Shown here piece after piece: positions 18,490 through 43,769 of a stretch of DNA of 64,000 nt. The notes under the pieces are model-generated. The model was given only the letters and a program-made list of their open reading frames with translations. It was not told the DNA's origin and did not search any database. Origin of the DNA: Escherichia coli 042 (GTDB taxonomy: Bacteria > Pseudomonadota > Gammaproteobacteria > Enterobacterales > Enterobacteriaceae); NCBI RefSeq assembly GCF_000027125.1, contig NC_017626.1; one strand, given 5' to 3'. Each line of letters begins with the position of its first letter. Within the stretch, counting starts at the first letter, position 1. Both the position numbers and the translations under genes were made by a program.

Positions 18490-19353
18490 ATGAGAATAAC
18501 GATTGCATCAATAATTTTAATAATTAGCGCCACTGCAATAGGCGCCGAAGATACCCCTTCACATTTTGATATTCCCGAGCAAGTATTAAATAATATTACG
18601 AAGGAATCACGAAATAAACTGCAGGATATCATTGCCAAGGCTCAACATGGCGATAAAGCCTCACAAACGGTGATGGGACTCATATACCTGAATGGTCTAT
18701 CTGAAAGTCCTTCAGTGAAGGATATAAACAAAGCATTTTATTGGCTCAACCTTGCAGCAAAGCAAAATTATGATGAAGCTGAATTTTACTTAGGACAGAT
18801 TTATCATTACGGATATGATAATACGGGGCCTAACTATCGTATTGCGATATACTGGTATGAGAAAGCGGCAGAAAAAGGGAATGAACAAGCTCAAATAAAC
18901 TGTGCGAATATTTATCAATTTGGCCCACAGGAATTCCAAAACATTAACAAAGCCAAGTATTGGCTTCAGAAAGCAGTACAGAAGGACAATCCTATTGCAC
19001 ATGCAAACTTAGGGATTATCGGAATTCAAGAGAATAAGTATGCTGAAGCTATCCCTCACTTAAAAATAGCGGCAGAAAAGGGTCAGCGACTCGGCCAATA
19101 TAATTACGGGACACTTTTTTTTAATGGTCAGGGCGTTCCCAAAGATATACGACAGGCTAAATACTGGTTTGAGAAAGCTGCTACTCAAAACTTACCTATT
19201 GCACAAATTACTTTAGGACAAATTTATGCCTGGGGGCTTGATGGAAATGGCATAAATAAAGAAGAAGCGTTGCTCTGGTTAAATAAAGCCAAAGCCCAAG
19301 GTCAATTTACTGATAAACAGATCAACGCCATTATTTCAAAAAAAATAGACTAA
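18490..19353 (+). CDS. secreted Sel1-repeat (TPR-like) protein
   Basis: 287 aa; N-terminal signal peptide; about 7 Sel1-like repeats (recurring xAxxWxxKAAxQG); AT-rich coding sequence. Confidence 0.75.
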   Translation: MRITIASIILIISATAIGAEDTPSHFDIPEQVLNNITKESRNKLQDIIAKAQHGDKASQTVMGLIYLNGLSESPSVKDINKAFYWLNLAAKQNYDEAEFYLGQIYHYGYDNTGPNYRIAIYWYEKAAEKGNEQAQINCANIYQFGPQEFQNINKAKYWLQKAVQKDNPIAHANLGIIGIQENKYAEAIPHLKIAAEKGQRLGQYNYGTLFFNGQGVPKDIRQAKYWFEKAATQNLPIAQITLGQIYAWGLDGNGINKEEALLWLNKAKAQGQFTDKQINAIISKKID

Positions 19354-19377
19354 CTCCAAACCAAAATGCTCAAATCA

Positions 19378-20034
19378 ATGCCATCTATTCGCTATCACAA
19401 AATAGAATCATTTAATTATCGCCATATATGGGCCGTTGGTGATATTCATGGCGATTATCAATTATTACAATCCCGCTTACACCAACTCTCTTTTTGCCCC
19501 GAAACTGACTTACTTATTTCCGTAGGCGATAATATTGATCGTGGGCCGGATAGTCTTAACGTGCTACGCCTGTTAAACCAGCCCTGGTTTACATCGGTTA
19601 AAGGCAACCACGAGGCAATGGCGCTTGATGCCTTCGCGACTGGCGATGGCAATATGTGGCTTGCCAGTGGCGGTGACTGGTTCTTTGAGTTAAATGATTC
19701 AGAACAAAAAGAAGCAATAGACCTGTTGCTTCGCTTTCATCATCTTCCGCATATTATAGAAATCACCAACGATATTATAAAATATGTTATCGTACATGCA
19801 GATTATCCGGGTGATGAATATCAGTTTGGCAAGGAAGTAGCGGAAAGAGAGGTACTCTGGCCTGTTGATCGCGTGCAGAAATCACTCAAAGGCGAGTTAA
19901 AAGAAATAAACGGTGCCGACTGTTTTATCTTCGGGCATATGATGTTTACAAATATCCAGACATTTGCCAATCAGGTTTATATTGATACCGGCTCGCCGGA
20001 AAGCGGGCGGTTATCGTTTTATAAAATAAAATGA
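19378..20034 (+). CDS. pphB: serine/threonine protein phosphatase 2 (PPP family)
   Basis: GDIHG, GDNIDRG and GNHE metallophosphatase motifs; about 218 aa from MPSIRY. Confidence 0.88.
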   Translation: MPSIRYHKIESFNYRHIWAVGDIHGDYQLLQSRLHQLSFCPETDLLISVGDNIDRGPDSLNVLRLLNQPWFTSVKGNHEAMALDAFATGDGNMWLASGGDWFFELNDSEQKEAIDLLLRFHHLPHIIEITNDIIKYVIVHADYPGDEYQFGKEVAEREVLWPVDRVQKSLKGELKEINGADCFIFGHMMFTNIQTFANQVYIDTGSPESGRLSFYKIK

Positions 20035-20039
20035 CAAGA

Positions 20040-20075
20040 CCGGGTAAGGCAAAGCCTCTACCCGGCACTTTTTTA
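20040..20075. terminator. bidirectional hairpin between convergent pphB and ecdD
   Basis: ccgggta-aggcaaagcctc-tacccgg stem-loop followed by a T-run. Confidence 0.55.
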
Positions 20076-20312
20076 TTAACGCTTATCTGCCACCAGCAGT
20101 GGCGGAATGCTCGGCACCATTGGCGCGTCATCAATATCTTTCTGCGTCATGCGGAACGCTTCGGGATAATGTTCGCGGCTGGTGCGGCGCAGCGGTTCGG
20201 TATCGCGCCAGGTATAGAGGCAATGCTGGCACTGGTAGACCGTCCAGACATCTTTTACCGGCGATTTCGCCATCACTTCAATCTGTTCATCAGCACAACG
20301 TGGACAAATCAT
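20076..20312 (-). CDS. ecdD: phenolic acid decarboxylase small subunit (BsdD/VdcD-like)
   Basis: 78 aa Cys-containing ORF immediately downstream of the UbiD-like gene. Confidence 0.75.
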   Translation of the reverse strand: MICPRCADEQIEVMAKSPVKDVWTVYQCQHCLYTWRDTEPLRRTSREHYPEAFRMTQKDIDDAPMVPSIPPLLVADKR

Positions 20313-20322
20313 CTTGTTCTCC

Positions 20323-21750
20323 TTATTGACGTGCGGCCAGCATAGCGGTCAGTTTTTCAGCCCAGGCTTTGGTTTCCGGTAAATCCACCACCGGCTGGCT
20401 GTAGTGACCACGGTTGTCCGGGGCGACAGGCGTGGTAGCGTCGATAATCAGCTTGTCGGTGATACCTGCCGGGCTTGAGCCGGGGTCGAGTTCCAGCACG
20501 GACATATTCGGCAACTGCACCAAATCCCCTGCAGGGTTCACTTTCGAAGAGAGCGCCCACATCACCTGCGGCAGGTTGAACGGATCAACGTCTTCATCGA
20601 CCATAATCACCATCTTCACGTAGCCCAGACCGTGTGGCGTGGTCATCGCACGCAGGCCCACCGCGCGGGCAAAGCCACCGTAGCGTTTTTTGGTGGAGAT
20701 AATCGCCAGCAGGCCGTGGGTGTACATAGCGTTCACCGCCTGCACTTCCGGGAACTCGGCTTTCAGTTGCTGATACAGCGGCACGCAGGTGGCAGGCCCC
20801 ATCAGGTAGTCGATTTCGGTCCACGGCATACCAAGATAGAGCGATTCGAAAATCGGTTTGGTACGGTAAGAGACTTTATCGATACGCACCACGGTCATGT
20901 TACGCCCGCCGGAGTAGTGGCCGGTAAACTCACCGAACGGCCCTTCGATTTCGCGTTTACGGCTTTCGATGACCCCTTCGAGGATCACTTCTGAACCCCA
21001 CGGCACATCAAAACCGGTCAATGGCGCGGTGGCGATCGGGTACGGGCTTTCACGCAGCGCGCCCGCCATTTCATACTCAGACTGATCGTATTTCAGCGGC
21101 GTGGCCCCCATCAGGGTGATGATCGGATCGTTACCGAGCGTGATGGCAATCGGCAGATCTTCACCGCGTTCTTCCGCTTTATGCAGATGCAGAGCGATAT
21201 CGTGCATCGGCACCGGTTGCAGGCCGAGCTTACGTTTGCCCTTCACTTCCATGCGGTAGATGCCGACGTTCTGCTTGCCGAAGTTATCCGGGTCGAGCGG
21301 ATCGCGGGAAACCACGCACGCTTTATCGAGATAGAAACCGCCATCACCGTCGTTTAAACGAAACAGCGGCAGAATATCGAACAGGTTGATCTCGTCGCCA
21401 TCGACGGTGTTCTGCGCCCAGGCTGGATTGGCGCGGCGCTCCGGGGCAATGGGGAAGTTATCCCAGCGGCGGATAAACTCATCAATCTGTTTTTTAACCG
21501 GGGTGTTTGGCGGCAGGCCGAGGGAAATCGCGTGGTTCTGCCAGGAACCGATGGTATTCATCGCCACGCGGGCATCGATAAAGCCGCGAATATTGTCAAA
21601 CCACAGCGCCGGTGCACCATCGCCGATACGTCCGGTGGCGTTGGCAGCGGCTGCCAGATCCGGTTCCGCGTTCACCTCTTCACTGATTTTCAGTAACTGG
21701 CCGTGGTCATCAAGCGCCTGTAAAAAGCTGCGTAAATCATCAAATGCCAT
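20323..21750 (-). CDS. ecdC: UbiD-family (prFMN-dependent) aromatic acid decarboxylase
   Basis: 475 aa with UbiD-family similarity. Confidence 0.85.
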   Translation of the reverse strand: MAFDDLRSFLQALDDHGQLLKISEEVNAEPDLAAAANATGRIGDGAPALWFDNIRGFIDARVAMNTIGSWQNHAISLGLPPNTPVKKQIDEFIRRWDNFPIAPERRANPAWAQNTVDGDEINLFDILPLFRLNDGDGGFYLDKACVVSRDPLDPDNFGKQNVGIYRMEVKGKRKLGLQPVPMHDIALHLHKAEERGEDLPIAITLGNDPIITLMGATPLKYDQSEYEMAGALRESPYPIATAPLTGFDVPWGSEVILEGVIESRKREIEGPFGEFTGHYSGGRNMTVVRIDKVSYRTKPIFESLYLGMPWTEIDYLMGPATCVPLYQQLKAEFPEVQAVNAMYTHGLLAIISTKKRYGGFARAVGLRAMTTPHGLGYVKMVIMVDEDVDPFNLPQVMWALSSKVNPAGDLVQLPNMSVLELDPGSSPAGITDKLIIDATTPVAPDNRGHYSQPVVDLPETKAWAEKLTAMLAARQ

Positions 21751-22343
21751 TATTCATTCTCCTGAGAAAAATTCCGGGCCTGCGGCAATCCTTGCCAGCG
21801 CCTGGCGTGAGGATGTTCGAGGCCAAATTGATCCAGCACGCGGGCTACCACATGGTGGACAATGTCATCTACCGTTTCGGGATGGTTATAAAAGGCAGGC
21901 ATCGGCGGCACCATCGCCACACCCATGCGCGAAAGTGCGAGCATATTTTCGAGATGGATTGTGCTAAGCGGCATTTCACGCGGCACCAGCACCAGTTTGC
22001 GGCCTTCTTTGAGCACGACGTCCGCCGCGCGCCCTACGAGACCATCGGCGTAACCAGCGCGGATACCGGCGAGCGTTTTCATACTGCATGGAATAACGAT
22101 CATGCCGTCGGTACGAAAGGAGCCGGAAGAGATAGTCGCAGCCTGATCCGCCGGGTTATGGCTGAAGTCTGCGAGGGCGGCAACATCGCGAGCGCTGTAA
22201 GGCGTTTCCAGTTCAATGGTGGTTTTCGCCCACTTCGACATCACCAGATGAGTCTCGACATTCGGCATCTCCCGCAGCGCTTGCAGTAATGCCACCCCAA
22301 GAGGCGCACCGGTAGCCCCTGTCATCCCGACGATCAGTCTCAT
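21750..22343 (-). CDS. ecdB: UbiX/Pad1-family flavin prenyltransferase
   Basis: 197 aa; N-terminal MRLIVGMTGATGAPLGV flavoprotein motif. Confidence 0.88.
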   Translation of the reverse strand: MRLIVGMTGATGAPLGVALLQALREMPNVETHLVMSKWAKTTIELETPYSARDVAALADFSHNPADQAATISSGSFRTDGMIVIPCSMKTLAGIRAGYADGLVGRAADVVLKEGRKLVLVPREMPLSTIHLENMLALSRMGVAMVPPMPAFYNHPETVDDIVHHVVARVLDQFGLEHPHARRWQGLPQARNFSQENE

Positions 22344-22360
22344 TGTTTATTCTCTTAATT

Positions 22361-22374
22361 GTTCGTATACGAAC
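22361..22374. promoter_or_regulatory. perfect palindrome in the divergent ecdB/hosA promoter region (candidate MarR-type operator)
   Basis: GTTCGTATACGAAC, 14 bp, self-complementary, about 18 bp upstream of ecdB start. Confidence 0.45.
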
Positions 22375-22489
22375 GTTATTATTAAAATACGCCTCTGTTT
22401 TCATCGCGGCAAGCACTGAAAAGTAACAACATCTTCTTCGTCACTGAAAAACCGCTATGATAGCGGCAGATAGTTTGCCCGGAGTTTAC

Positions 22490-22897
22490 ATGGCGTTACG
22501 AAATAAAGCGTTCCATCAGTTACGACAGCTTTTTCAGCAGCACACGGCTCGCTGGCAGCACGAGTTACCTGACCTCACCAAACCACAGTACGCGGTGATG
22601 CGCGCCATTGCTGATAAGCCTGGTATCGAACAGGTGGCACTGATAGAAGCAGCAGTCAGCACCAAAGCAACGCTGGCAGAAATGTTGACAAGAATGGAAA
22701 ATCGTGGCTTAGTCAGACGTGAACATGACGCCGCTGACAAGCGGCGACGCTTTGTCTGGCTGACTGCCGAAGGAGAAAAGGTACTTGCTGCGGCGATACC
22801 GATTGGTGACAGTGTGGATGCGGAATTTTTGGGGCGTTTGAGTGGAGAAGAGCAGGAGCTGTTTATGCAGCTGGTGCGCAAGATGATGAGCAAATAG
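22490..22897 (+). CDS. hosA: MarR/SlyA-family transcriptional regulator
   Basis: 135 aa from MALRNK; winged-HTH MarR pattern; divergent from ecdB. Confidence 0.85.
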   Translation: MALRNKAFHQLRQLFQQHTARWQHELPDLTKPQYAVMRAIADKPGIEQVALIEAAVSTKATLAEMLTRMENRGLVRREHDAADKRRRFVWLTAEGEKVLAAAIPIGDSVDAEFLGRLSGEEQELFMQLVRKMMSK

Positions 22898-22972
22898 GAT
22901 GCTGATTGCCGGGTAGGACGCTGACGAGTCTTATCCAGGCGACAAAACACACCGACTTCCCAAACAAAAGAA

Positions 22973-23002
22973 AAAGGCCAGCCTCGCTTGAGACTGGCCT
23001 TT
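22973..23002. terminator. rho-independent terminator after rpoS (shared with convergent hosA)
   Basis: aaaggccag-loop-ctggccttt stem; T-rich tail on the minus strand. Confidence 0.65.
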
Positions 23003-23017
23003 CTGACAGATGCTTAC

Positions 23018-24010
23018 TTACTCGCGGAACAGCGCTTCGATATTCAGCCCCTGCGTTTGCAGGATTTCGCGCAAACGGCGCAGGCCTTCAACCTGAATCT
23101 GGCGAACACGTTCACGGGTGAGGCCAATTTCACGACCTACATCTTCCAGTGTTGCCGCTTCGTACCCCAGCAAACCGAATCGACGTGCCAGCACTTCACG
23201 CTGTTTGGCGTTCAGCTCGAACAGCCATTTGACGATGCTCTGCTTCATATCGTCATCTTGCGTGGTATCTTCCGGACCGTTCTCTTTTTCATCGGCCAGG
23301 ATGTCCAGCAACGCTTTTTCGGAATCACCACCCAGCGGGGTGTCTACCGAGGTAATGCGCTCGTTAAGACGAAGCATACGGCTGACGTCATCAACTGGCT
23401 TATCCAGTTGCTCTGCGCTCTCTTCCGCACTTGGTTCGTGGTCCAGTTTATGGGACAACTCGCGTGCGGTTCGCAGGTAAACGTTCAGCTCCTTTACGAT
23501 GTGAATCGGCAAACGAATAGTACGGGTTTGGTTCATAATCGCCCGTTCGATCGTCTGGCGGATCCACCAGGTTGCGTATGTTGAGAAGCGGAAACCACGT
23601 TCCGGGTCAAACTTCTCTACCGCGCGGATCAGCCCCAGGTTGCCCTCTTCGATCAGGTCCAACAGCGCCAGACCACGATTGCCATAACGGCGGGCAATCT
23701 TCACGACCAGACGCAGGTTACTTTCAATCATCCGGCGACGTGAAGCGACATCTCCACGCAGTGCGCGACGCGCGAAATAAACTTCTTCTTCGGCCGTTAA
23801 CAGTGGCGAATAACCAATCTCACCAAGGTAAAGCTGAGTCGCGTCCAACACACGCTGTGTGGCCCCTTGCGATAACAGCTCCTCTTCAGCCAAATCGTTA
23901 TCACTGGGTTCCTCTTCAACTAAGGCTTTCTCGTCAAAAACCTCAACTCCGTTCTCATCAAATTCCGCGTCTTCATTTAAATCATGAACTTTCAGCGTAT
24001 TCTGACTCAT
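23018..24010 (-). CDS. rpoS: RNA polymerase sigma factor sigma-S (sigma-38)
   Basis: 330 aa full-length sigma-70 family protein; codon 33 reads Glu. Confidence 0.97.
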
Positions 24011-24072
24011 AAGGTGGCTCCTACCCGTGATCCCTTGACGGAACTAGCAAGCAAAAGCCTGGTTCCGCCGAA

Positions 24073-25212
24073 TTATCGCTGCGGTAAATAACGCAGCGGG
24101 TTTACGGATTTCCCCTTGTAACGAATTTCAAAATGCAAGCGTGTTGAACTGGTTCCGGTGCTACCCATGGTTGCTATTTTTTGCCCCGCCTTCACTTCTT
24201 GTTGTTCCCGGACCAGCATTGTGTCGTTATGGGCGTAGGCACTCAGGTAATCATCATTATGTTTGATGATAATCAGATTACCGTAGCCGCGCAGCGCGTT
24301 ACCGGCATAAACAACGCGGCCATCTGCGGTCGCGATAATTGCCTGTCCTTTGCTGCCTGCGATATCAATCCCCTTGTTGCCCCCCTCAGAAGCGCCAAAG
24401 GTTTCGATCACTTTGCCCTCAGTCGGCCAGCGCCAGGTGGAGATAGGCGTACTGGTTGATGTACTGCTGACAGTCGGCTCGGTTGTGCTTGCTGTTGGTA
24501 CCGTTACAGGCGCTGTGACCGTGGTCGCAGTTGGCTTGTTGTTCGGCAACATTTTGTTAGCACTCTGTTCACCCGAAGACTCAGAATACGTAATTGTCGG
24601 TTGCGACGCAACAGCAACGGTGGAATTTTGTGCAGGCTTGATCACAACTCCTTGCTCTGCTGCGTCGGCCTGGGTAATGGCATTTCCGCCAGTGATTGGC
24701 GTACCGGAAGCATTACCCACCTGTAAGGTCTGACCGACGTTCAGCGCGTATGGTGCCTGAATATTGTTGCGCTGAGCAAGGTCACGGAAATCGTTGCCAG
24801 TAATCCAGGCGATATAGAAAAGTGTGTCGCCTTTTTTCACGGTATAGGTACTGCCGCTATAACTGCCTTTCGGAATGTTCCCATACTGACGGTTATAGAC
24901 GATGCGTCCGTTTTCCATCTGTACCGGCTGCTGAGCTACTGGCTGTACTGGCTGGATTTGCGGTTGTTGAGTAGCCTGAATTTGTGGCTGCTGTACCGGC
25001 TGAATTTGCGGTTGCTGCGCTGTAGACGTCGTTCCCATTTTCGGCGGTGGCGTAATCAACATACCAGAATTGGTATTTGCAGGCGCATTGCCATTAACGG
25101 AGCTTACCGGTGCCGGTGGATTTGAAGTGTCAGAACAGCCTGCCAGCCATAGCGAAACCAGTGACAAAGCCGCAATGCGGCGAACGGTGAATTTTGGGCT
25201 TCCCGCGCTCAT
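24073..25212 (-). CDS. nlpD: murein hydrolase activator lipoprotein (LysM + M23 domains)
   Basis: 379 aa; lipobox LAGC; QPQIQ repeats; C-terminal M23 peptidase-like domain. Confidence 0.95.
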
Positions 25213-34097: not shown

Positions 34098-34553
34098 GGG
34101 AGTTCTACCGCAGGGGCGGGGAACTCCAAGTGATGTCCATCATCGCATCCAGTGCGTCCGGTTTATCCCCGCTGACGCGGGGAACACACATGAATGTCGG
34201 TTCAGACCGTGTTTTTACCCGGTTTATCCCCGCTGGCGCGGGGAACACTCGTCGGCGTCTTCACCCGTCGCATAACGCTGCGGTTTATCCCCGCTGGCGC
34301 GGGGAACACTGCCAGCGTGTCGGCGTGCGTTTCGCGCTGCCCGGTTTATCCCCGCTGACGCGGGGAACACTCGATCGATAGCTGCGCGATACCTGCGGGG
34401 ATCGGTTTATCCCCGCTGACGCGGGGAACACGGCAGCTATCGAGGCAGTTATCGAGCGTCGCGCGGTTTATCCCCGCTGACGCGGGGAACACCAAAGGAC
34501 ACCGGGAGGCACCCGGCACCGCAGCGGTTTATCCCCGCTGACGCGGGGAACAC
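34098..34553 (-). CRISPR. type I-E CRISPR array: 8 repeats (the iap-proximal one degenerate), 7 spacers of 32 nt
   Basis: 29-nt repeat cggtttatccccgctg(a/g)cgcggggaacac at 34159, 34220, 34281, 34342, 34403, 34464, 34525; degenerate copy at 34098..34126; 61-nt period. Confidence 0.95.
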
Positions 34554-34649: not shown

Positions 34650-35859
<1,210 letters not shown>

Positions 35860-35863
<4 letters not shown>

Positions 35864-36510
35864 GCCTCTGCTCCGGGTTTGATCAGCATCAGACCACAGC
35901 CGAACGCGCGGCTTTTGCCATACCCCTGGCTCAGACGTTGCAGAAATAACCCAGGATCGGTGACCGTAAGCATCCCCGTATAATCCACGCTACAGAACTG
36001 GATCAGTTGCCGGGAGTTTTCCCGCCGCAGTTGCTGTTGTCGGTAGGCATCGACCGAGGTATCCAGTAGTGTAAAACCGCTTCTTTCCCCCTGCGCTGCC
36101 AGCCAGTCCAGCGCCGCCTGTTGTTGATGCAACCAGACATCACGCCCTTCCGCCTGCCCCCTCACCTGCCGTTTCGCCTCTATCAGCAGATCGTGGCGCT
36201 TACCCGCTTTACAGACTGTTGGATTCGCCCGCAGGTTGAAACAAAGGGATTGTCCGGTACGCAGCTCCGGCGCAAATGACCGGCATTCGATGGTGAACGT
36301 ATCACTTTCCGCCGGGCGTTCCTGCGACAGGACAAAAAAGCGAAACGCGCCCTGGAGTTCTTCCCGACGATAAAGAAATTGCCTTTCTTTGCCACCCGGG
36401 AAAAGATCCCACAGCCACTGATGCATCACATATTCACCGCGATCCACCAGATGCAGCAACTGCGCAGGCGAAAGCTGGCCGGTATGTAAGGTTATTCTTG
36501 AGAGGTACAT
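35860..36510 (-). CDS. casE: CRISPR pre-crRNA endoribonuclease Cas6e (CasE)
   Basis: Likely start MYLSRITLHTGQ (track ORF 35860..36648 is an upstream extension); C-terminal G-rich loop GYGKSRAFGCGLM. Confidence 0.88.
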
Positions 36511-37238
36511 GGTTCCTCCTTGCTGAGCCACGGCCCCTGATTGACGGTGCGTTCCCCAAACAGCCACTGCTGGCGATTTAAAGGAACATCCCGGCGGCGC
36601 AATATTTTGCTCGCGACCAGGCCGTCGTGCTCCCCTTCCCACCAGCATTCATCCTGAAGTTTCGGGAGTGAGACTTTCAGTTCGTGGAAACGATCCTGAT
36701 ACTGTTGGTATGCGTTACGTAAGACATCAGACGCGTTGCCTTCGAGCAGTAACGGCGCAAGTGGTAACGCCAGCGGATGACTTTTTCGCCCCAGATAAAG
36801 CGGAAAAACCGGATGACGTAAATCTTCCTGCAACTGTTCGAGGCTGTAAGGCGCATCGGGGGTTGTTGCCACCGCCACCATCCACCAGGCGTCGGTGTAA
36901 TAGTCGCGCCGGGAGATAATCGCGCTTAGCAGTTCAAGATTACTCAACTCTTCGCGACGGCTGAAATAACGCGCTTTACGCACCTCTTTTGGCATCTGGA
37001 CCGTGTGATAATCCCGTGCCCAGCGCGGGTTACGGCTGGCGCAAACCACCAGTGAATAGTGGCGATTAAACGCGTTTAAGCGTTCGGTATCATCACGCCG
37101 AATCCCTACCCCGGCAGCCAGCAGCCCCAGCAATGCTGAGCGCGAAGGCAGTTCATGGGTATGACGCACTTCACCGGGGGCATCGACGCCCCAGGATGCC
37201 ATCGGCCCATGAAGCTGAAAAATTAGATATTGGCTCAT
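36492..37238 (-). CDS. casD: Cascade subunit Cas5e (CasD)
   Basis: 248 aa; N-terminal MSQYLIFQLHGPMASWG typical of Cas5. Confidence 0.88.
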   Translation of the reverse strand: MSQYLIFQLHGPMASWGVDAPGEVRHTHELPSRSALLGLLAAGVGIRRDDTERLNAFNRHYSLVVCASRNPRWARDYHTVQMPKEVRKARYFSRREELSNLELLSAIISRRDYYTDAWWMVAVATTPDAPYSLEQLQEDLRHPVFPLYLGRKSHPLALPLAPLLLEGNASDVLRNAYQQYQDRFHELKVSLPKLQDECWWEGEHDGLVASKILRRRDVPLNRQQWLFGERTVNQGPWLSKEEPCTSQE

Positions 37239-37248
37239 AAGCCGCCCC

Positions 37249-38304
37249 TTACGCGCAGATAAAGTCCAGCACGTCCTTCATGCTTCCCTGTTTGTTCATC
37301 ACGTCAAAACTTGTGTAATCGGTCTTCTGTTCGTAAACCTTATTCATGTTTTCGCGAAGCGTCGTAATACGCTGCACCGCTTCATCTAACTGCCCGGTGC
37401 CGTTAATGGGTTCATAAAAAGCCGCCGCCAGAGAGCGCGGTTGTTCGATACCTTTTTCTGCCATCGCCCAGGAGGCGTAGGCACGACTGGCAAAGCTGTT
37501 TTGTTTACCGGTTGGGGAAACTTTAAACGCGGCTTCCGTAAAGGCGCGCAGGGTCTGATTAGCCAACGCTTCGTCTCCGCCGAGGTTTTCTACCAACAGA
37601 TCTTTATCAATGCAGATATAGGTGTAGAAAAGTGCTGAACCGAATCCGGTTTCACCAAGATGCCCGGCACCGGCATCTTCAGAAGCCTGGCGCAAATCAT
37701 CAACGGCGGTGAAAAAATCATCTTCGACAATCGTTTCACTGACACCAAACGCATGCGCAACCTGGCAGGCGGCTTCAACATTAAACTCGGGTTTATTCGC
37801 CAGCATACGACCAAACATAGCGATATCTACCGCCATGCGATCTTTACGTAACAAAGCGAGATCTTCCTCTTTTGGCGCGCGCTTTTCTTCGGCCAGTTGA
37901 TGGGCCAGCGCTTTTACGGCGTCAAATTCTGCCGGGCTGATATGGACTAGCTGTTCAGTTTCGGCGTTAGTGAGCGGATCTTTTGGTTTTTTGTCGTTTT
38001 TAGCTTTCCCAAGATAATCCGCAATTTTTGCCGCCCATTCGATGGCTTTTTTCTCTTCGATGCCTTTCTCAATCAGGATAGTTGCCGCCTCACGCGCAAT
38101 ACGCCCACTGCGAATACCAATATGGCCCGCCAGTGCCTGTTCAAAATGTGCAGAAGTGCGCCACGCACGTTTCAGACTTTGTGAGGAAACGCGCAGACGC
38201 GTTGCTCCACCCAGTACCACAGTTTTTGGCGCACCGGTGTCATCACGGTTAAGGTTGGCAGCAGGGTAAGCGGTTAACAAATGAAGCTGAATAAATGTCG
38301 TCAT
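37249..38304 (-). CDS. casC: Cascade backbone subunit Cas7e (CasC)
   Basis: 351 aa; MTTFIQLHLLTAYPAANLNRDDTG typical Cas7e N-terminus. Confidence 0.92.
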   Translation of the reverse strand: MTTFIQLHLLTAYPAANLNRDDTGAPKTVVLGGATRLRVSSQSLKRAWRTSAHFEQALAGHIGIRSGRIAREAATILIEKGIEEKKAIEWAAKIADYLGKAKNDKKPKDPLTNAETEQLVHISPAEFDAVKALAHQLAEEKRAPKEEDLALLRKDRMAVDIAMFGRMLANKPEFNVEAACQVAHAFGVSETIVEDDFFTAVDDLRQASEDAGAGHLGETGFGSALFYTYICIDKDLLVENLGGDEALANQTLRAFTEAAFKVSPTGKQNSFASRAYASWAMAEKGIEQPRSLAAAFYEPINGTGQLDEAVQRITTLRENMNKVYEQKTDYTSFDVMNKQGSMKDVLDFICA

Positions 38305-38318
38305 GAGATAGTCCTTTA

Positions 38319-38855
38319 TTAATTTTGTTCGTTATCGGCGTCGCCAGCCTGGTAATATTCCAGCGCCCAGCGGATACGGATAAATTCTGTTGGCCGCTGC
38401 TGGCGGCGGTGATGATTGAGCAGATCGTCGCTCTCCTGGCACCAGCGGAAAATATCGTCTGCCAAAGAGATAAGATTGACGGAACCATTTAATAATTTGA
38501 CCGCGCGACGTAACTGGCGCAGTAATTCATCCGGCGTTTTGACTGCCGACAGGCGAGTAAAACGCCCCTCAGACATTACCGCCGCCAACTGCGCGGCAAA
38601 AAGCTGCCGTTCATCAATGGCTTTTACATTGGCGGCAACGGCGGCAACCAGCGCCAGTGCGGTAAAACGCCACTCCTGTGATTCAATTTTCCACAACGTG
38701 TGGGTCTGCATCAGCAGAGAACGAAACCCTTCTGACAGACAAACATCATTAACCGTTGTGCTACGCCGCAGACTGGCACGATTGCCTCGTTTTTCCTGCA
38801 ACTCTTCGTGCCATTTACGCAGCGTGGCTTTGTGCTCCTCTTTTACAATACTCAT
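38319..38855 (-). CDS. casB: Cascade small subunit Cse2 (CasB)
   Basis: 178 aa alpha-helical, Arg/Lys-rich ORF between cas7e and cse1. Confidence 0.85.
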   Translation of the reverse strand: MSIVKEEHKATLRKWHEELQEKRGNRASLRRSTTVNDVCLSEGFRSLLMQTHTLWKIESQEWRFTALALVAAVAANVKAIDERQLFAAQLAAVMSEGRFTRLSAVKTPDELLRQLRRAVKLLNGSVNLISLADDIFRWCQESDDLLNHHRRQQRPTEFIRIRWALEYYQAGDADNEQN

Positions 38856-40420
38856 TCAGCAGCCTCCTGCTTTTTCTCCCTGGCGGCTTTAGCACTTTGC
38901 TTCTCCGCCGATGTTGTAAAATATTTCTTGCGCGCGGTCATGACGCGTTTCAAATCAACGGGCTCATAAGGATTAGTGAATACACGCTCGTCAAAATCCT
39001 GACGCGCGAATAACCAAATTTCCTTTTGCCATTTGCCGAGTAATTCATCCGCATCCTGACCTTCTTCAATTTGGCGCACTAACCTCAGGAAGCGATGCTG
39101 AGTTTTGTTCCAGAAGTCGATATCCACAAAACTAAAATCACCCCGAGCACCTTTTGGATCGGAGAACCAGGCTTCTTTCAATGCACTCCGTAACAGACTT
39201 AGAATCCGTGAAGCCGTTTGCGCAACCAGCCGCAGCTTCGGTATCTGGCCTTCTTTTTTATTGAGCAGCAGCGGGAAATGGTGTTCGTACCAACAACGGG
39301 CTTTCATGTTGTCAAAATCATAACCAAATCCCCACAGGCCCACTTTTGTCTGCTTCAGACTGCTGGCATTAAAGAGTTTCACCACCAGCGCGGGAAGTTC
39401 CGTATTGTTTTCTGACTTACCCGTTTCGATAAGACCTAACCAGTCGCGCCAGATTAAACCGCCCGGTTGTGGTTTAACGGAGTAAAACTCACCGCCCTCT
39501 TTAAGTGGTACACGGTAAGGCGTTAAGGGATGCTGCCACATGGCATAATTCGCACCATAATTTTTGGTCGTCATCAGGCTCAGGAGCGAGTCATTCTGCT
39601 CGCCGCAAATATCGCAGTTGCCGACTGTCGTGGTATTAAAATCAATACGAATACGCCGCGGCATTCCCCAGTACGCCTGGAGTTTATTGACCTGATCATG
39701 GGTTACCACCGCACCGGCCAGTTCGCTGGTACGCGTCGGGCCAAGCCAGGGGAAAATCAGATCGTCAAATTTTTTGGGTAGCGGTAAGTCGGCTTCATCC
39801 TGCGGCATCACATTGAGCCACAGTTTGCGCCACAAGGGTGTTTGTTGATTGCCCTGATATTCCTGTAATTCAATCAGAGTGGTCATCGGCCCACCGCCGC
39901 GTAAACCGGTGCGATAGCCTTTGCCGCCTGACGGCGCATTTAACTGTAGGGAGAACAGAGCTAACGCAGAACAATGTGGGCACAGGTATTCCGTTACACC
40001 ACGCTTGATAAAGTGGTCTTTATTAAACTTCGTTGTTTGAGCGCCGGGAATCTCAGGCAGTAGCGAAGCGACCGGAATTTTATCTCCGGTGAGCGCCTCG
40101 AAATCCTGCATAAATGAAGGGGAATCTGGGCCAAACTGGAAAGCATGTTCTAAAGATAGCAATGCTTCCCGTAGCTTTTCAGCTTCCAGTCCGTCTTCCC
40201 AGATATCATCCCAACGACGATGATCTTTTGGCGCGAAGCTGGTTTGTAGTAGCCCCAGCAAAAACTGCCACGCCGCTCCCTGGAGATCTGCCCGCGGCGC
40301 AGCGATATCGACAACATTTTCATCCGCCAGATCGACTGGCGCCAGTTTGCCTGTTGTTCCGTCTTTAAAACGAACGGGCAACCACGGGGTTGTCAGAAGT
40401 GAAAACGAGTTCATACGCAT
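38852..40420 (-). CDS. casA: Cascade large subunit Cse1 (CasA)
   Basis: Track ORF 38852..40483 begins at TTG; first ATGs are 21-23 codons in (MRMNSFSLLTTPWLPV), giving about 522 aa. Confidence 0.85.
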   Translation of the reverse strand: MRMNSFSLLTTPWLPVRFKDGTTGKLAPVDLADENVVDIAAPRADLQGAAWQFLLGLLQTSFAPKDHRRWDDIWEDGLEAEKLREALLSLEHAFQFGPDSPSFMQDFEALTGDKIPVASLLPEIPGAQTTKFNKDHFIKRGVTEYLCPHCSALALFSLQLNAPSGGKGYRTGLRGGGPMTTLIELQEYQGNQQTPLWRKLWLNVMPQDEADLPLPKKFDDLIFPWLGPTRTSELAGAVVTHDQVNKLQAYWGMPRRIRIDFNTTTVGNCDICGEQNDSLLSLMTTKNYGANYAMWQHPLTPYRVPLKEGGEFYSVKPQPGGLIWRDWLGLIETGKSENNTELPALVVKLFNASSLKQTKVGLWGFGYDFDNMKARCWYEHHFPLLLNKKEGQIPKLRLVAQTASRILSLLRSALKEAWFSDPKGARGDFSFVDIDFWNKTQHRFLRLVRQIEEGQDADELLGKWQKEIWLFARQDFDERVFTNPYEPVDLKRVMTARKKYFTTSAEKQSAKAAREKKQEAAE

Positions 40421-40511
40421 CCTCTCGTAAAAAAGACCATCCCAGGTCGGTTGTCCATCATTCCATCCTTTTGGGTGTATCAACTATTCAGAGAGCCCTG
40501 TCGCAGGCATC

Positions 40512-43169
40512 TCAACCAACCTTGCCAGTCAATCCTTCCATAGCCGAATACCCGCAACTTTCGTCATCGGTGACTAAAATCACGTTTGCCATCTCCGGAT
40601 CTTGCCGCTGTTCAATGCACCACTGCCTGAACGCATCCCCTTCCAGTAAAGAAAACTCATCCCGATGTTTTTTCCACCAGCTTCGACGCACTCTGACAAC
40701 GCTCATTTCCCATGCGTGAGCACCGGTGGCATAAGGCTTCACCACACCGTCAATACAGGTAGCCAGCCACAGGGAAACAGATTCCTCAGCCAGACGTGTC
40801 GACAGCTTTTCCGGAAGGTAATCGTTGATATTGGCGGCATAGCCAGGCTTGAAGTTCAGGACAAACTTTTTAGCCATTGCGCGATCGCAGTAATATTTGC
40901 CCACTTGCTCCTGCTCACTGCGGGCAAATCCTTCCGGCATTGCCACGTCTTCACCGTAGACTGATTCAATAAGAAGCCGGGCTGCGTGTGGCATCTGAAT
41001 AGCGCCTTGCTCACGCAGCACACGCTGCGTCAGCCAGATTCGCCCATGATCGGGGTAGACATATGCACTGTTACGCATGGCGCTGCCAAACCATTCGTCA
41101 CCCGGAGAGTCATCCCAGACGGGAGCCAGAATCAGCAATTCAGGAGGGGAACGCTCATCTTTTCCGTCACGCTTTAACTGACCATTAATATCGCGGATAT
41201 GCCGCTGTAATCGCCCCGCCCGCTGGATTAGCAAATCAATGTGGGCCAGGTCGGAGATCATTTCGTCCAGGTCACAATCGACGCTCTGCTCTAATACCTG
41301 AGTACAAATAAGGACTTTTCCGGCACGCTGTGAGTTACCTTCTTTACCAAAGCGTGCCAGCGTTTCCGTTTCAATTCGCTGGCGATCGCTAAAAGCAAAG
41401 CGGCTATGAAAAAGTGAAAGGCTGGAAGCGGGAATGACGCCGCGGGCAAGCAGCTGACGATGAACCTTAATAGCGTCATCGACAGAATTCCGGATCCAGG
41501 CGATGCATTTCCCCTGACTTACCGCCGATTCGATATGTGCAATACATTCTTGTTCGCTATGAAGCCAACCCACACACACGTTGCGCTCAACTTCTTTGCG
41601 CGTCGCTACCCGGTGCGAATGCAAATCGGATTTCGTGACATGCGTCAGCCATGGGTAATCATCCTTTTCAAGGAACGGAGCTTCTTGTTGGCCCTCTGCA
41701 CCACGCGCAAAGGCAGCGACGAGTTTGTCGCGCTGCTGTTGAGATAACGTAGCAGAAAGCAAAATGATACTGTTTCCGCCACGCGCCTGCCGCTCAATCA
41801 ATCCTTCAAGAATGCACGACATGTAAGCGTCACAGGCATGGATCTCATCAGCCAGCAGGATTTTTTTACTCAACCCCAGAAGCCGCAGATTATTATGTTT
41901 GAACGGCATCACCGCCATCATCGCCTGATCCAAGGTGCCGACGCCAATTTCAGCCAGCAACGCCTTCTTGTTACTGTCGGCAAACCAGGCCGCACATCCC
42001 TGGCTGAACGCTTGTTCATCCGGTTCTTCTGACCCGACTAAATCACCGGACCAGAGTGATTCATTGAAGCGGTCCATTAATGTATGGGCACTGTGTGCCA
42101 GCACCAGGCTGGGGCGGGATTCTGGCGAATAGAAAGCAAGCCAGGTTTTGACCAGCCGATCGTACATGGCATTGGCCGTTGCCATTGTTGGCAGGCCAAA
42201 AAACAAACCCTGAGCTTTCCCCGCAGCCATCAACCTGTGGACCATGATAAGCGCTGCTTCTGTTTTACCTGCGCCAGTCACATCCTCCAGAATAAATAAC
42301 TGTGGCCCAGGCTGGCTGATATCCAGATCCAGTACCTTTTGCTGTAACGGTGTCGGGTGCTCAATAAAAGGAAACAGTGTATTAATTCCGGTGAAAGGCG
42401 CGGTTTGTGCTTTTGGAGGAAAGACGGTTAAGGCGTTTTGAGCCTGAACTAAAGCCTTCTGCCAGTAATCTTTAATATCCATTGCCTGTGCAACGCGTGG
42501 AAAAAACCGCGTTGACGATCCCGTCCAGTCTGCGAGTACGACGGTTGCAGAGATATACCAGGAAAGTTGTTTTATAAGTTCAACGCCCTCGTCATCATCC
42601 CAGAATGTGGGGATCTCGATGAGCGGGAACAGTGTCTTGATTGCAAGGAGAAAATCTCGTGCGGCAGCTTTGTCTTCAGGCAGAAAATTATCCAGTTCAT
42701 CCATACGATCAGGAGGCTGACCATGATGCCCGGTAGTCATGGGCATCCACATCTCTATTACCCGTTTAAGTTTGCGGGGAGAGAGTGAAGATGAAGGAAG
42801 CAACTCTTCACATTCAATTAAATAATGATTCCACAACCAGTAGCCCAGCGTTGAATGAGAGATCTTTTCGTAATTTTTTCTTGCACTTTCCGGAACCTTG
42901 AGCTGTGGGTGCAGGTAAAGTTGCTGAAAAGAGCGGGCAAATTTTCCAGTATCGTGCCAACACAGCAACCAGGCGAAAAATTGTGCTGCCTGCTCCGTGT
43001 CAGCGATACCTAATTGACGAAAATAGTCAGCCAACCCGAAACAGTTGTTTTTGACCATTAAATAACCCGTCGCGGCTACATCCAGCGAATGCCAGCAAAG
43101 TAGATGATAGTCGTCGCCGCCCTCTTTCTCGCCACGTCGGGTTTTTCCCCAGAAATCAAAGAAAGTCAC
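40512..43169 (-). CDS. cas3: CRISPR-associated nuclease-helicase Cas3 (HD domain + SF2 helicase)
   Basis: 885 aa; N-terminal HD motifs (LCWHSLDV, HDTGK), Walker A GAGKT, DEAH-like LADEIH. Confidence 0.95.
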   Translation of the reverse strand: MTFFDFWGKTRRGEKEGGDDYHLLCWHSLDVAATGYLMVKNNCFGLADYFRQLGIADTEQAAQFFAWLLCWHDTGKFARSFQQLYLHPQLKVPESARKNYEKISHSTLGYWLWNHYLIECEELLPSSSLSPRKLKRVIEMWMPMTTGHHGQPPDRMDELDNFLPEDKAAARDFLLAIKTLFPLIEIPTFWDDDEGVELIKQLSWYISATVVLADWTGSSTRFFPRVAQAMDIKDYWQKALVQAQNALTVFPPKAQTAPFTGINTLFPFIEHPTPLQQKVLDLDISQPGPQLFILEDVTGAGKTEAALIMVHRLMAAGKAQGLFFGLPTMATANAMYDRLVKTWLAFYSPESRPSLVLAHSAHTLMDRFNESLWSGDLVGSEEPDEQAFSQGCAAWFADSNKKALLAEIGVGTLDQAMMAVMPFKHNNLRLLGLSKKILLADEIHACDAYMSCILEGLIERQARGGNSIILLSATLSQQQRDKLVAAFARGAEGQQEAPFLEKDDYPWLTHVTKSDLHSHRVATRKEVERNVCVGWLHSEQECIAHIESAVSQGKCIAWIRNSVDDAIKVHRQLLARGVIPASSLSLFHSRFAFSDRQRIETETLARFGKEGNSQRAGKVLICTQVLEQSVDCDLDEMISDLAHIDLLIQRAGRLQRHIRDINGQLKRDGKDERSPPELLILAPVWDDSPGDEWFGSAMRNSAYVYPDHGRIWLTQRVLREQGAIQMPHAARLLIESVYGEDVAMPEGFARSEQEQVGKYYCDRAMAKKFVLNFKPGYAANINDYLPEKLSTRLAEESVSLWLATCIDGVVKPYATGAHAWEMSVVRVRRSWWKKHRDEFSLLEGDAFRQWCIEQRQDPEMANVILVTDDESCGYSAMEGLTGKVG

Positions 43170-43407: not shown

Positions 43408-43560
43408 TACTTCTTCGATTCGTAAGCGAGAACTGCCTTAAACTCCATACCACGTTCTCTGATACTCAACTCACACAACGAGTCGCCTACCATCAGCGTG
43501 AATCCCAGTACTGTACAACACAGTACGATGATTGCCACAAGGGCATATTTTGTCAGCATG
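43408..43560 (-). CDS. hok: Hok/Gef-family type I toxin (small membrane peptide)
   Basis: 50 aa [50 protein letters not shown]; matches Hok/Gef pattern (TM helix, SLCE, AYES); GGAGG 7 nt upstream of ATG; below the 60-aa track cutoff. Confidence 0.8.
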
Positions 43561-43769
43561 TCTTGCCTCCCTGCAAAGAAGAGACTAACATTCGAATTGC
43601 TTAGGTTCGAACGCTGGCCTCAGGTTGATTGAAATATCGCCTGGGGCTTTTGTCCATCTGGAACCTCGCGAATGCTTAACGCCAGACAGCCTCAAGCACC
43701 CAACGCCATTCTATACCTGTTAATTTTCCCTGCGATGTTCACCTTTAAATGCCGGAATGCTGCTCGCAA

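Follow-up and report, generated by a model that had tools for sequence, protein, structure and literature searches.

A full-length rpoS allele of Escherichia coli carries a rare, recurrent Ile198Ser substitution predicted to attenuate sigma-S

Can a wild-type general stress response be expected of an Escherichia coli strain whose rpoS gene is uninterrupted and encodes glutamate at codon 33? The question is raised by the rpoS locus in a 64,000-nucleotide stretch of E. coli 042 DNA (the window). The original prediction for this locus held that the open reading frame encodes an uninterrupted sigma-S of 330 residues with Glu at codon 33, and that the strain probably has a wild-type general stress response. 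The rpoS coding sequence occupies positions 23018..24010 on the minus strand, as a single uninterrupted frame with an ATG start, 330 codons and a TAA stop. The ORF listing and its translation contain no internal stop codons, and neither a stop nor a frameshift, the lesions named in the prediction as contrary evidence, was found in the window's rpoS sequence; the claim of an intact 330-residue protein is borne out.

Against the NCBIfam RpoS equivalog NF004207 (cut-off 394) the product reaches 600.6 bits, and against TIGR02394 (cut-off 378.7) it reaches 477 bits; in the profile search the RpoD and RpoH models scored under their own cut-offs for this protein. Pfam sigma-70 regions 1.2, 2, 3 and 4 are present in the correct order (PF00140 at residues 56-88, PF04542 at 94-163, PF04539 at 174-248 and PF04545 at 262-315). 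The equivalog scores together with the Pfam regions argue that this is not a chance reading frame. A sequence search against the PDB returned the sigma-S chains 6KJ6, 5IPL and 6OMF at E ~1e-210. For structural comparison we used an alignment-based AF2 model with a mean pLDDT of 86.9, setting aside a single-sequence model with a mean pLDDT of 40.7; the best PDB match of the model used is 5IPL chain F (E = 2e-34, TM 0.85 normalised to target). A search with the 993-bp gene matched 5,414 of 5,426 complete E. coli genomes, with annotated rpoS under the match. The window holds the chromosomal rpoS of a non-K-12 E. coli; the gene lies in the usual nlpD-rpoS setting and encodes a full-length sigma-S; both the gene and the allele, WP_000081564.1, are already deposited in databases.

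Codon 33 reads GAG (Glu) at 23912..23914 on the minus strand, as predicted. The premise that laboratory lineages often carry an amber or altered codon 33 agrees with the literature on K-12, whose stocks have amber, Gln or Tyr at this codon, while natural non-K-12 isolates have GAG (PMC2700278); GAG was also found in all of the pathogenic and probiotic isolates of a further study (PMC1852560). An alignment of codon 33 against reference alleles had been proposed as a check, and by this comparison the window's GAG is the natural non-K-12 allele (PMC2700278, PMC1852560). The K-12 gene (Gln33 in MG1655, amber or Tyr33 in other stocks) is the same gene of the same length class, and the window differs from it in having Glu33, like natural isolates. 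In the AF2 model residue 33 lies within the disordered N-terminus (residues 1-35, pLDDT <50), and on the family profile E33Q carries a penalty of only 0.5 bits. Apart from codons 33 and 198, the window's RpoS presumably agrees with the MG1655 protein. An rpoS with Glu33 is in itself unremarkable, a textbook gene.

The expression signals of the gene are in place. A Shine-Dalgarno sequence, AGGAG (24018..24022, minus strand), was read from the sequence 7 nt 5' of the ATG (24008-24010). The 5' neighbour is nlpD (24073..25212, minus strand), which encodes a LysM and M23 lipoprotein and within which lie the rpoS promoter and the greater part of the long leader. A sigma-70 promoter scan under strict criteria returned no site in the region, and the main rpoS promoter was placed instead by the offsets published for it inside nlpD (PMC1852560). 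It occupies 24583..24611 on the minus strand, with the -35 hexamer TTGCGT (24606-24611) and the -10 hexamer TATTCT (24583-24588) separated by a 17-nt spacer; the hexamers lie at offsets -601..-596 and -578..-573, in exact agreement with those reported. Beyond the gene, 14 nt past the rpoS stop, lies an intrinsic terminator-like hairpin (22971..23004, minus strand) with a 15-bp stem and a T tail. The gene order is the canonical truD-surE-pcm-nlpD-rpoS, and the 3 kb 5' of rpoS, from truD to the rpoS start with promoter and leader included, is identical to that of strains 118UI and C4. From the sequence and the comparison with these two strains, we found no regulatory lesion in the promoter, leader, ribosome-binding site or terminator.

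On the other side of the gene, the variable mutS-rpoS region (18490-22897) is of a non-K-12 type, with a Sel1-repeat gene, a pphB-like phosphatase gene, decarboxylase genes and a MarR-family gene. The hydroxyarylic acid decarboxylase subunits encoded here are B, C and D. Compared with K-12, the window has the version of this region with the MarR-family gene and the hydroxyarylic acid decarboxylase genes, and the ygbI-N sugar-acid cluster is absent from 18490-22897. The MarR-family gene (22457-22897, plus strand), which lies 3' of rpoS, has a private non-synonymous SNP at 22688: codon 78 of its 146-aa ORF is Thr (ACA) in the window and Ala (GCA) in 118UI, C4 and L025, the closest relative found.

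The window's RpoS is not identical to the consensus natural protein, WP_000081550.1. Codon 198 (23417..23419, minus strand) reads AGC (Ser) and not ATC (Ile); the variant base at 23418 is nt 593 of rpoS, a T>G change on the coding strand that converts ATC to AGC. WP_000081550.1, the common natural RpoS found in 118UI, C4 and STEC299, matches the window's protein at 329 of 330 residues and has the same Glu33, but it carries Ile198, encoded by an ATC within a GATC site, where the window has Ser198. In a base-by-base comparison with 118UI and C4, which have the same nlpD-rpoS region and an rpoS one base away from that of the window, the sole rpoS mismatch falls at 23418.

This change is rare. No identical copy of the 993-bp gene is present in the 5,426 complete E. 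coli genomes, where the best matches are one mismatch off, and none of 5,400 genomes contains an exact match to a 61-mer centred on nt 593. At nt 593 itself, the 5,426 genomes have T (Ile) in 5,370 cases, G (Ser) in 4, A (Asn) in 1 and C (Thr) in none; the collection is without some reference genomes, ED1a among them, and the frequency of 4/5,426 is a property of that collection. These counts were made with 31-mers, which force the 28-base word of megablast across the variant base, and the 31-mer context was invariant in every haplotype examined. The four Ser198 genomes are those of O26:H11 strain 11368, E2865, UTAK-8 and NCTC9041, all annotated with WP_000081564.1. Their protein, shared by ED1a (CU928162.2), is 100% identical to that of the window, with Glu33, Ser198 and the same AGC codon. 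In a public protein collection the window's exact RpoS protein is found on 277 contigs and the Ile198 form, WP_000081550.1, on more than 1,000. The accessions listed for the exact protein include CBG35765.1, which may belong to strain 042. Over 25 kb the best match among the complete genomes reaches 99.7%, and look-ups with the exact MutS and decarboxylase C subunit proteins led to contigs that resemble the window closely without being identical to it.

Consideration of the residues tolerated at position 198 gives insight into the likely cost of the substitution. Of 134 enterobacterial RpoS cluster representatives, 132 have Ile at column 198; the remaining two are the window's allele and a gap. 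The top 120 homologues were too near E. coli for tolerance at this position to be judged, and representatives at 50% identity were used. A first diverse panel (n=132) held a few frameshifted E. coli variants, and a recount on 99 cleaner sequences gave the same outcome: these 99 sigma factors, whose identity to E. coli RpoS is 42-71%, have Ile at column 198 in 62 cases, Val in 22, Leu in 13 and Met in 2, so that the column is aliphatic in 99/99 and polar in none. Nearby columns are hydrophobic as well (96% at column 199 and 91% at column 202 of the 99 sigma factors), and the spacing of hydrophobic positions 198, 199 and 202 (i, i+1, i+4) is that of the buried face of a helix. In the AF2 model residue 198 sits at pLDDT ~98 in the middle of H195-202, the second helix of the three-helix unit of sigma domain 3 (H169-189, H195-202 and H206-215). 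The conservation and the helix periodicity suggest that the Ile198 side chain is buried.

Scored on a profile HMM of the diverse panel, I198S carries a penalty of -5.6 bits, against 1.1-2.2 bits for conservative replacements; the penalty for I128N on the same profile is -5.1 bits. The main core-binding and -10/-35 contacts of sigma-70 factors are made by regions 2 and 4, and residue 198 lies outside both. The comparison with I128N is instructive in view of the known behavior of that allele, in which RpoS activity is abolished in the clinical STEC strain Kai1 though the full-length protein is made (PMC5405132). Another clinical missense rpoS allele, D118Y, has reduced activity (PMC7845604). Both alleles yield a sigma-S that is expressed at full length with one missense change, the state predicted for the window's allele, and I128N, with a similar profile penalty, also replaces a conserved helix Ile with a polar residue. 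They differ from it in location and in the kind of evidence: I128N and D118Y map to the beta-prime interface in region 2, with effects demonstrated by experiment, whereas I198S falls in region 3 (domain 3) and its effect is a prediction from sequence. Because single missense changes, hydrophobic-to-polar or other, are documented to abolish or cut the activity of full-length RpoS, function is not readable from ORF integrity, and an intact frame with a given codon 33 is an insufficient proxy for RpoS function. Full length, Glu33 and intact signals all speak for the wild-type stress response that had been thought probable, but the rare I198S, which the original prediction overlooked, speaks against it.

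The Ser198 codon is not confined to one lineage. It is spread over at least four clusters of rpoS haplotypes and occurs with four downstream gene arrangements, and it is always AGC among carriers. The Ser198 haplotypes are 24-30 substitutions from the window's rpoS, all of them synonymous, and every other difference between Ser198-carrying haplotypes is likewise synonymous. Carriers of WP_000081564.1 have other downstream genes than the window, and the carrier loci, compared in pairs, are 10-78 bases apart over 4 kb, save for one near-identical pair. Since the DNA backgrounds and the downstream genes differ, the shared Ser198 points to parallel mutation and not to common descent. Near-identical alleles with T at nt 593 were found for three of the backgrounds, which argues that the T>G change arose repeatedly. 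The Ile198 counterparts of the window's type are 118UI and C4, without any other rpoS difference; that of the ED1a type is STEC299, with one further synonymous difference; and for the O26 type only 11368 (human) and E2865 (bovine), whose rpoS genes are identical to each other, match at 100%, with many genomes one mismatch off. The simplest reading of Ser198 on several backgrounds is recurrent mutation. We also considered recombination and regard it as less likely, given that the synonymous sites that flank nt 593 are still those of the window's own haplotype; recombined tracts would need to leave out the polymorphic nt 573, just 20 nt from nt 593.

Among the 10 Ser198 places listed, four appear to be culture-collection (NCTC) strains (GCA_900449655.1, GCA_900636605.1, GCA_900450205.1 and GCA_900448755.1; labelled L008, L011, L012 and L014), of which only NCTC9041 is confirmed by name. 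This list, which is skewed to long contigs, hints at an enrichment of Ser198 in long-stored strains.

Why this particular base should change repeatedly may be related to its context. The ancestral sequence at rpoS nt 591-594 (window 23417..23420) is a GATC Dam motif, now GAGC and lost through the T>G change, which leaves four GATC sites in the window's rpoS out of five in the ancestral form. In the ancestral GAG-ATC the mutated T lies opposite the methylated adenine of the other strand, and GATC is a documented mutation hotspot at the methylated base (PMC13250602); methylation of this site thus possibly raises the local mutation rate and helps recurrence. The hotspot alone gives an incomplete account, as its products are mainly A:T>T:A (PMC13250602) and the observed A:T>C:G change is not typical of it. 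An A:T>T:A change at nt 593 would give I198N, which is found in one genome, against at least four for T>G. The T>G change also makes a perfect 5-nt direct repeat, AGAGC GC AGAGC, and templated misalignment through this repeat is conceivable as a matter of speculation. The transition that would give Thr at nt 593 is absent in the 5,426 genomes, which suggests that either selection or a very specific mutational route favors Ser.

An indication that rpoS may be under selection in these strains comes from the closest relative found, L025 (GCA_000352325.1), which differs from the window at 7 of 21,428 bases. Two of these differences lie in rpoS. Each changes the protein: the window has I198S, and L025 has Gln318stop, an independent nonsense change of codon 318 (CAA>TAA; window 23059, L025:8692). 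By a binomial calculation, the chance that at least two of seven differences would land in rpoS is 0.039. The same gene struck independently in close strains would be the expected signature of selection on rpoS. Gln318stop and the C-terminal change of the Escherich strain (PMC5793043) belong to the rpoS lesions that truncate the protein or affect its C-terminus in stored or evolved strains. Lesions of the L025 type are nonsense or frameshift changes, whereas in the window's rpoS the change is missense and the C-terminus is complete. Natural inactivation of rpoS is also seen in the complete genomes of CAVP879 and CAVP880, in which the gene is split by an IS1A insertion.

We propose, leaning somewhat towards this reading, that the window's sigma-S is attenuated, with activity that is lowered and not abolished. 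The T>G change at nt 593 places a serine on the hydrophobic face of the second sigma-3 helix, where this small polar residue would most likely loosen the core of domain 3. This domain carries the extended -10 recognition helix and joins regions 2 and 4, and its loosening would make sigma-S less stable or less able to engage core RNA polymerase and the extended -10 element productively, so that less holoenzyme would form or the holoenzyme would be less competent. Reduced RpoS activity has repeatedly been selected under nutrient limitation and in storage (PMC2700278, PMC7527412, PMC5793043), and selection for a tuned-down rpoS, through the balance of nutritional competence against stress protection or during long storage, may have produced I198S repeatedly. 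No published I198S phenotype was found in the searchable literature, whose scope excluded Bleibtreu et al. 2014, nor were specific RpoS phenotypes found there for strains 042, 11368 or ED1a.

The view that the substitution is functionally neutral, leaving a normal sigma-S response, is a possibility that we rate as rather unlikely. It draws on the intact reading frame, Glu33, promoter, leader and terminator, and on the persistence of the allele in several natural lineages, with human and bovine isolates of identical rpoS and occurrence on 277 contigs; such persistence might count against a strongly deleterious I198S. Serine is small and could be accommodated at position 198, which would speak against attenuation, and AF2 still models the Ser198 protein with confidence, though the method is insensitive to point mutations. 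Set against neutrality are the lack of polar residues at column 198 in all 99 diverse sigma factors and all 132 enterobacterial RpoS representatives, and a profile penalty equal to that of the proven loss-of-function change I128N. Recurrence at one base would also be unexpected of a neutral change while I198T is absent and the other differences between haplotypes are synonymous.

At the other extreme, I198S might be a null allele, whose sigma-S is made but essentially inactive or quickly degraded, as with I128N. A hydrophobic-to-polar change at an invariantly aliphatic position that costs as much as I128N (PMC5405132) is compatible with this, and the rpoS nonsense change in L025 suggests that the lineage tolerates or favors loss of function. 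We nevertheless consider a null improbable, because selection for any null would yield many and varied lesions and not one repeated missense change, and because lineages in circulation, such as those of human 11368 and bovine E2865, have kept the allele, which suits partial function better. The position of residue 198 outside regions 2 and 4 argues in the same direction. That the G at 23418 is a sequencing or assembly error, the true residue being Ile198, is very improbable: the difference from otherwise identical alleles is a single base, as an error would be, but the same change is found in many independent assemblies from varied technologies and groups (ED1a, 11368, E2865, UTAK-8, NCTC9041 and others), and its sequence context is not a homopolymer.

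Attenuation of sigma-S by I198S, our preferred reading, can be extended to an evolutionary one, which we put forward tentatively and with some doubt: I198S may be a recurrent, positively selected, partial-function allele, with the T>G change at the GATC of codons 197/198 repeatedly tuning down sigma-S. If true, several widely used reference strains (O26:H11 11368 and ED1a, with the window's strain) would have a weaker general stress response than has been assumed, and codon 197/198 would act as a natural 'dial' in trading stress resistance against growth. The recurrence of a single, exact base change in many backgrounds is a small, clean case of parallel evolution at rpoS. For work on stress resistance, biofilm, virulence and evolution, a wild-type sigma-S should not be assumed for the window's strain, and the same caution applies to reference strains that share the allele, such as O26:H11 11368 and ED1a.

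Elsewhere in the window we noted a type I-E CRISPR-Cas locus. Its array (34219-34553) has a 61-nt period and ~5-6 units of the repeat CGGTTTATCCCCGCTGGCGCGGGGAACAC, and it adjoins a cas block (34940-43169) that ends in a cas3 gene of ~884 aa with HD and C-terminal Cas3 domains. Just past cas3, a full-length sok antitoxin RNA lies at 43544-43701 on the minus strand (Rfam RF01794, 109.6 bits, gathering score 59), and its presence implies a chromosomal toxin-antitoxin locus of the hok/sok type.
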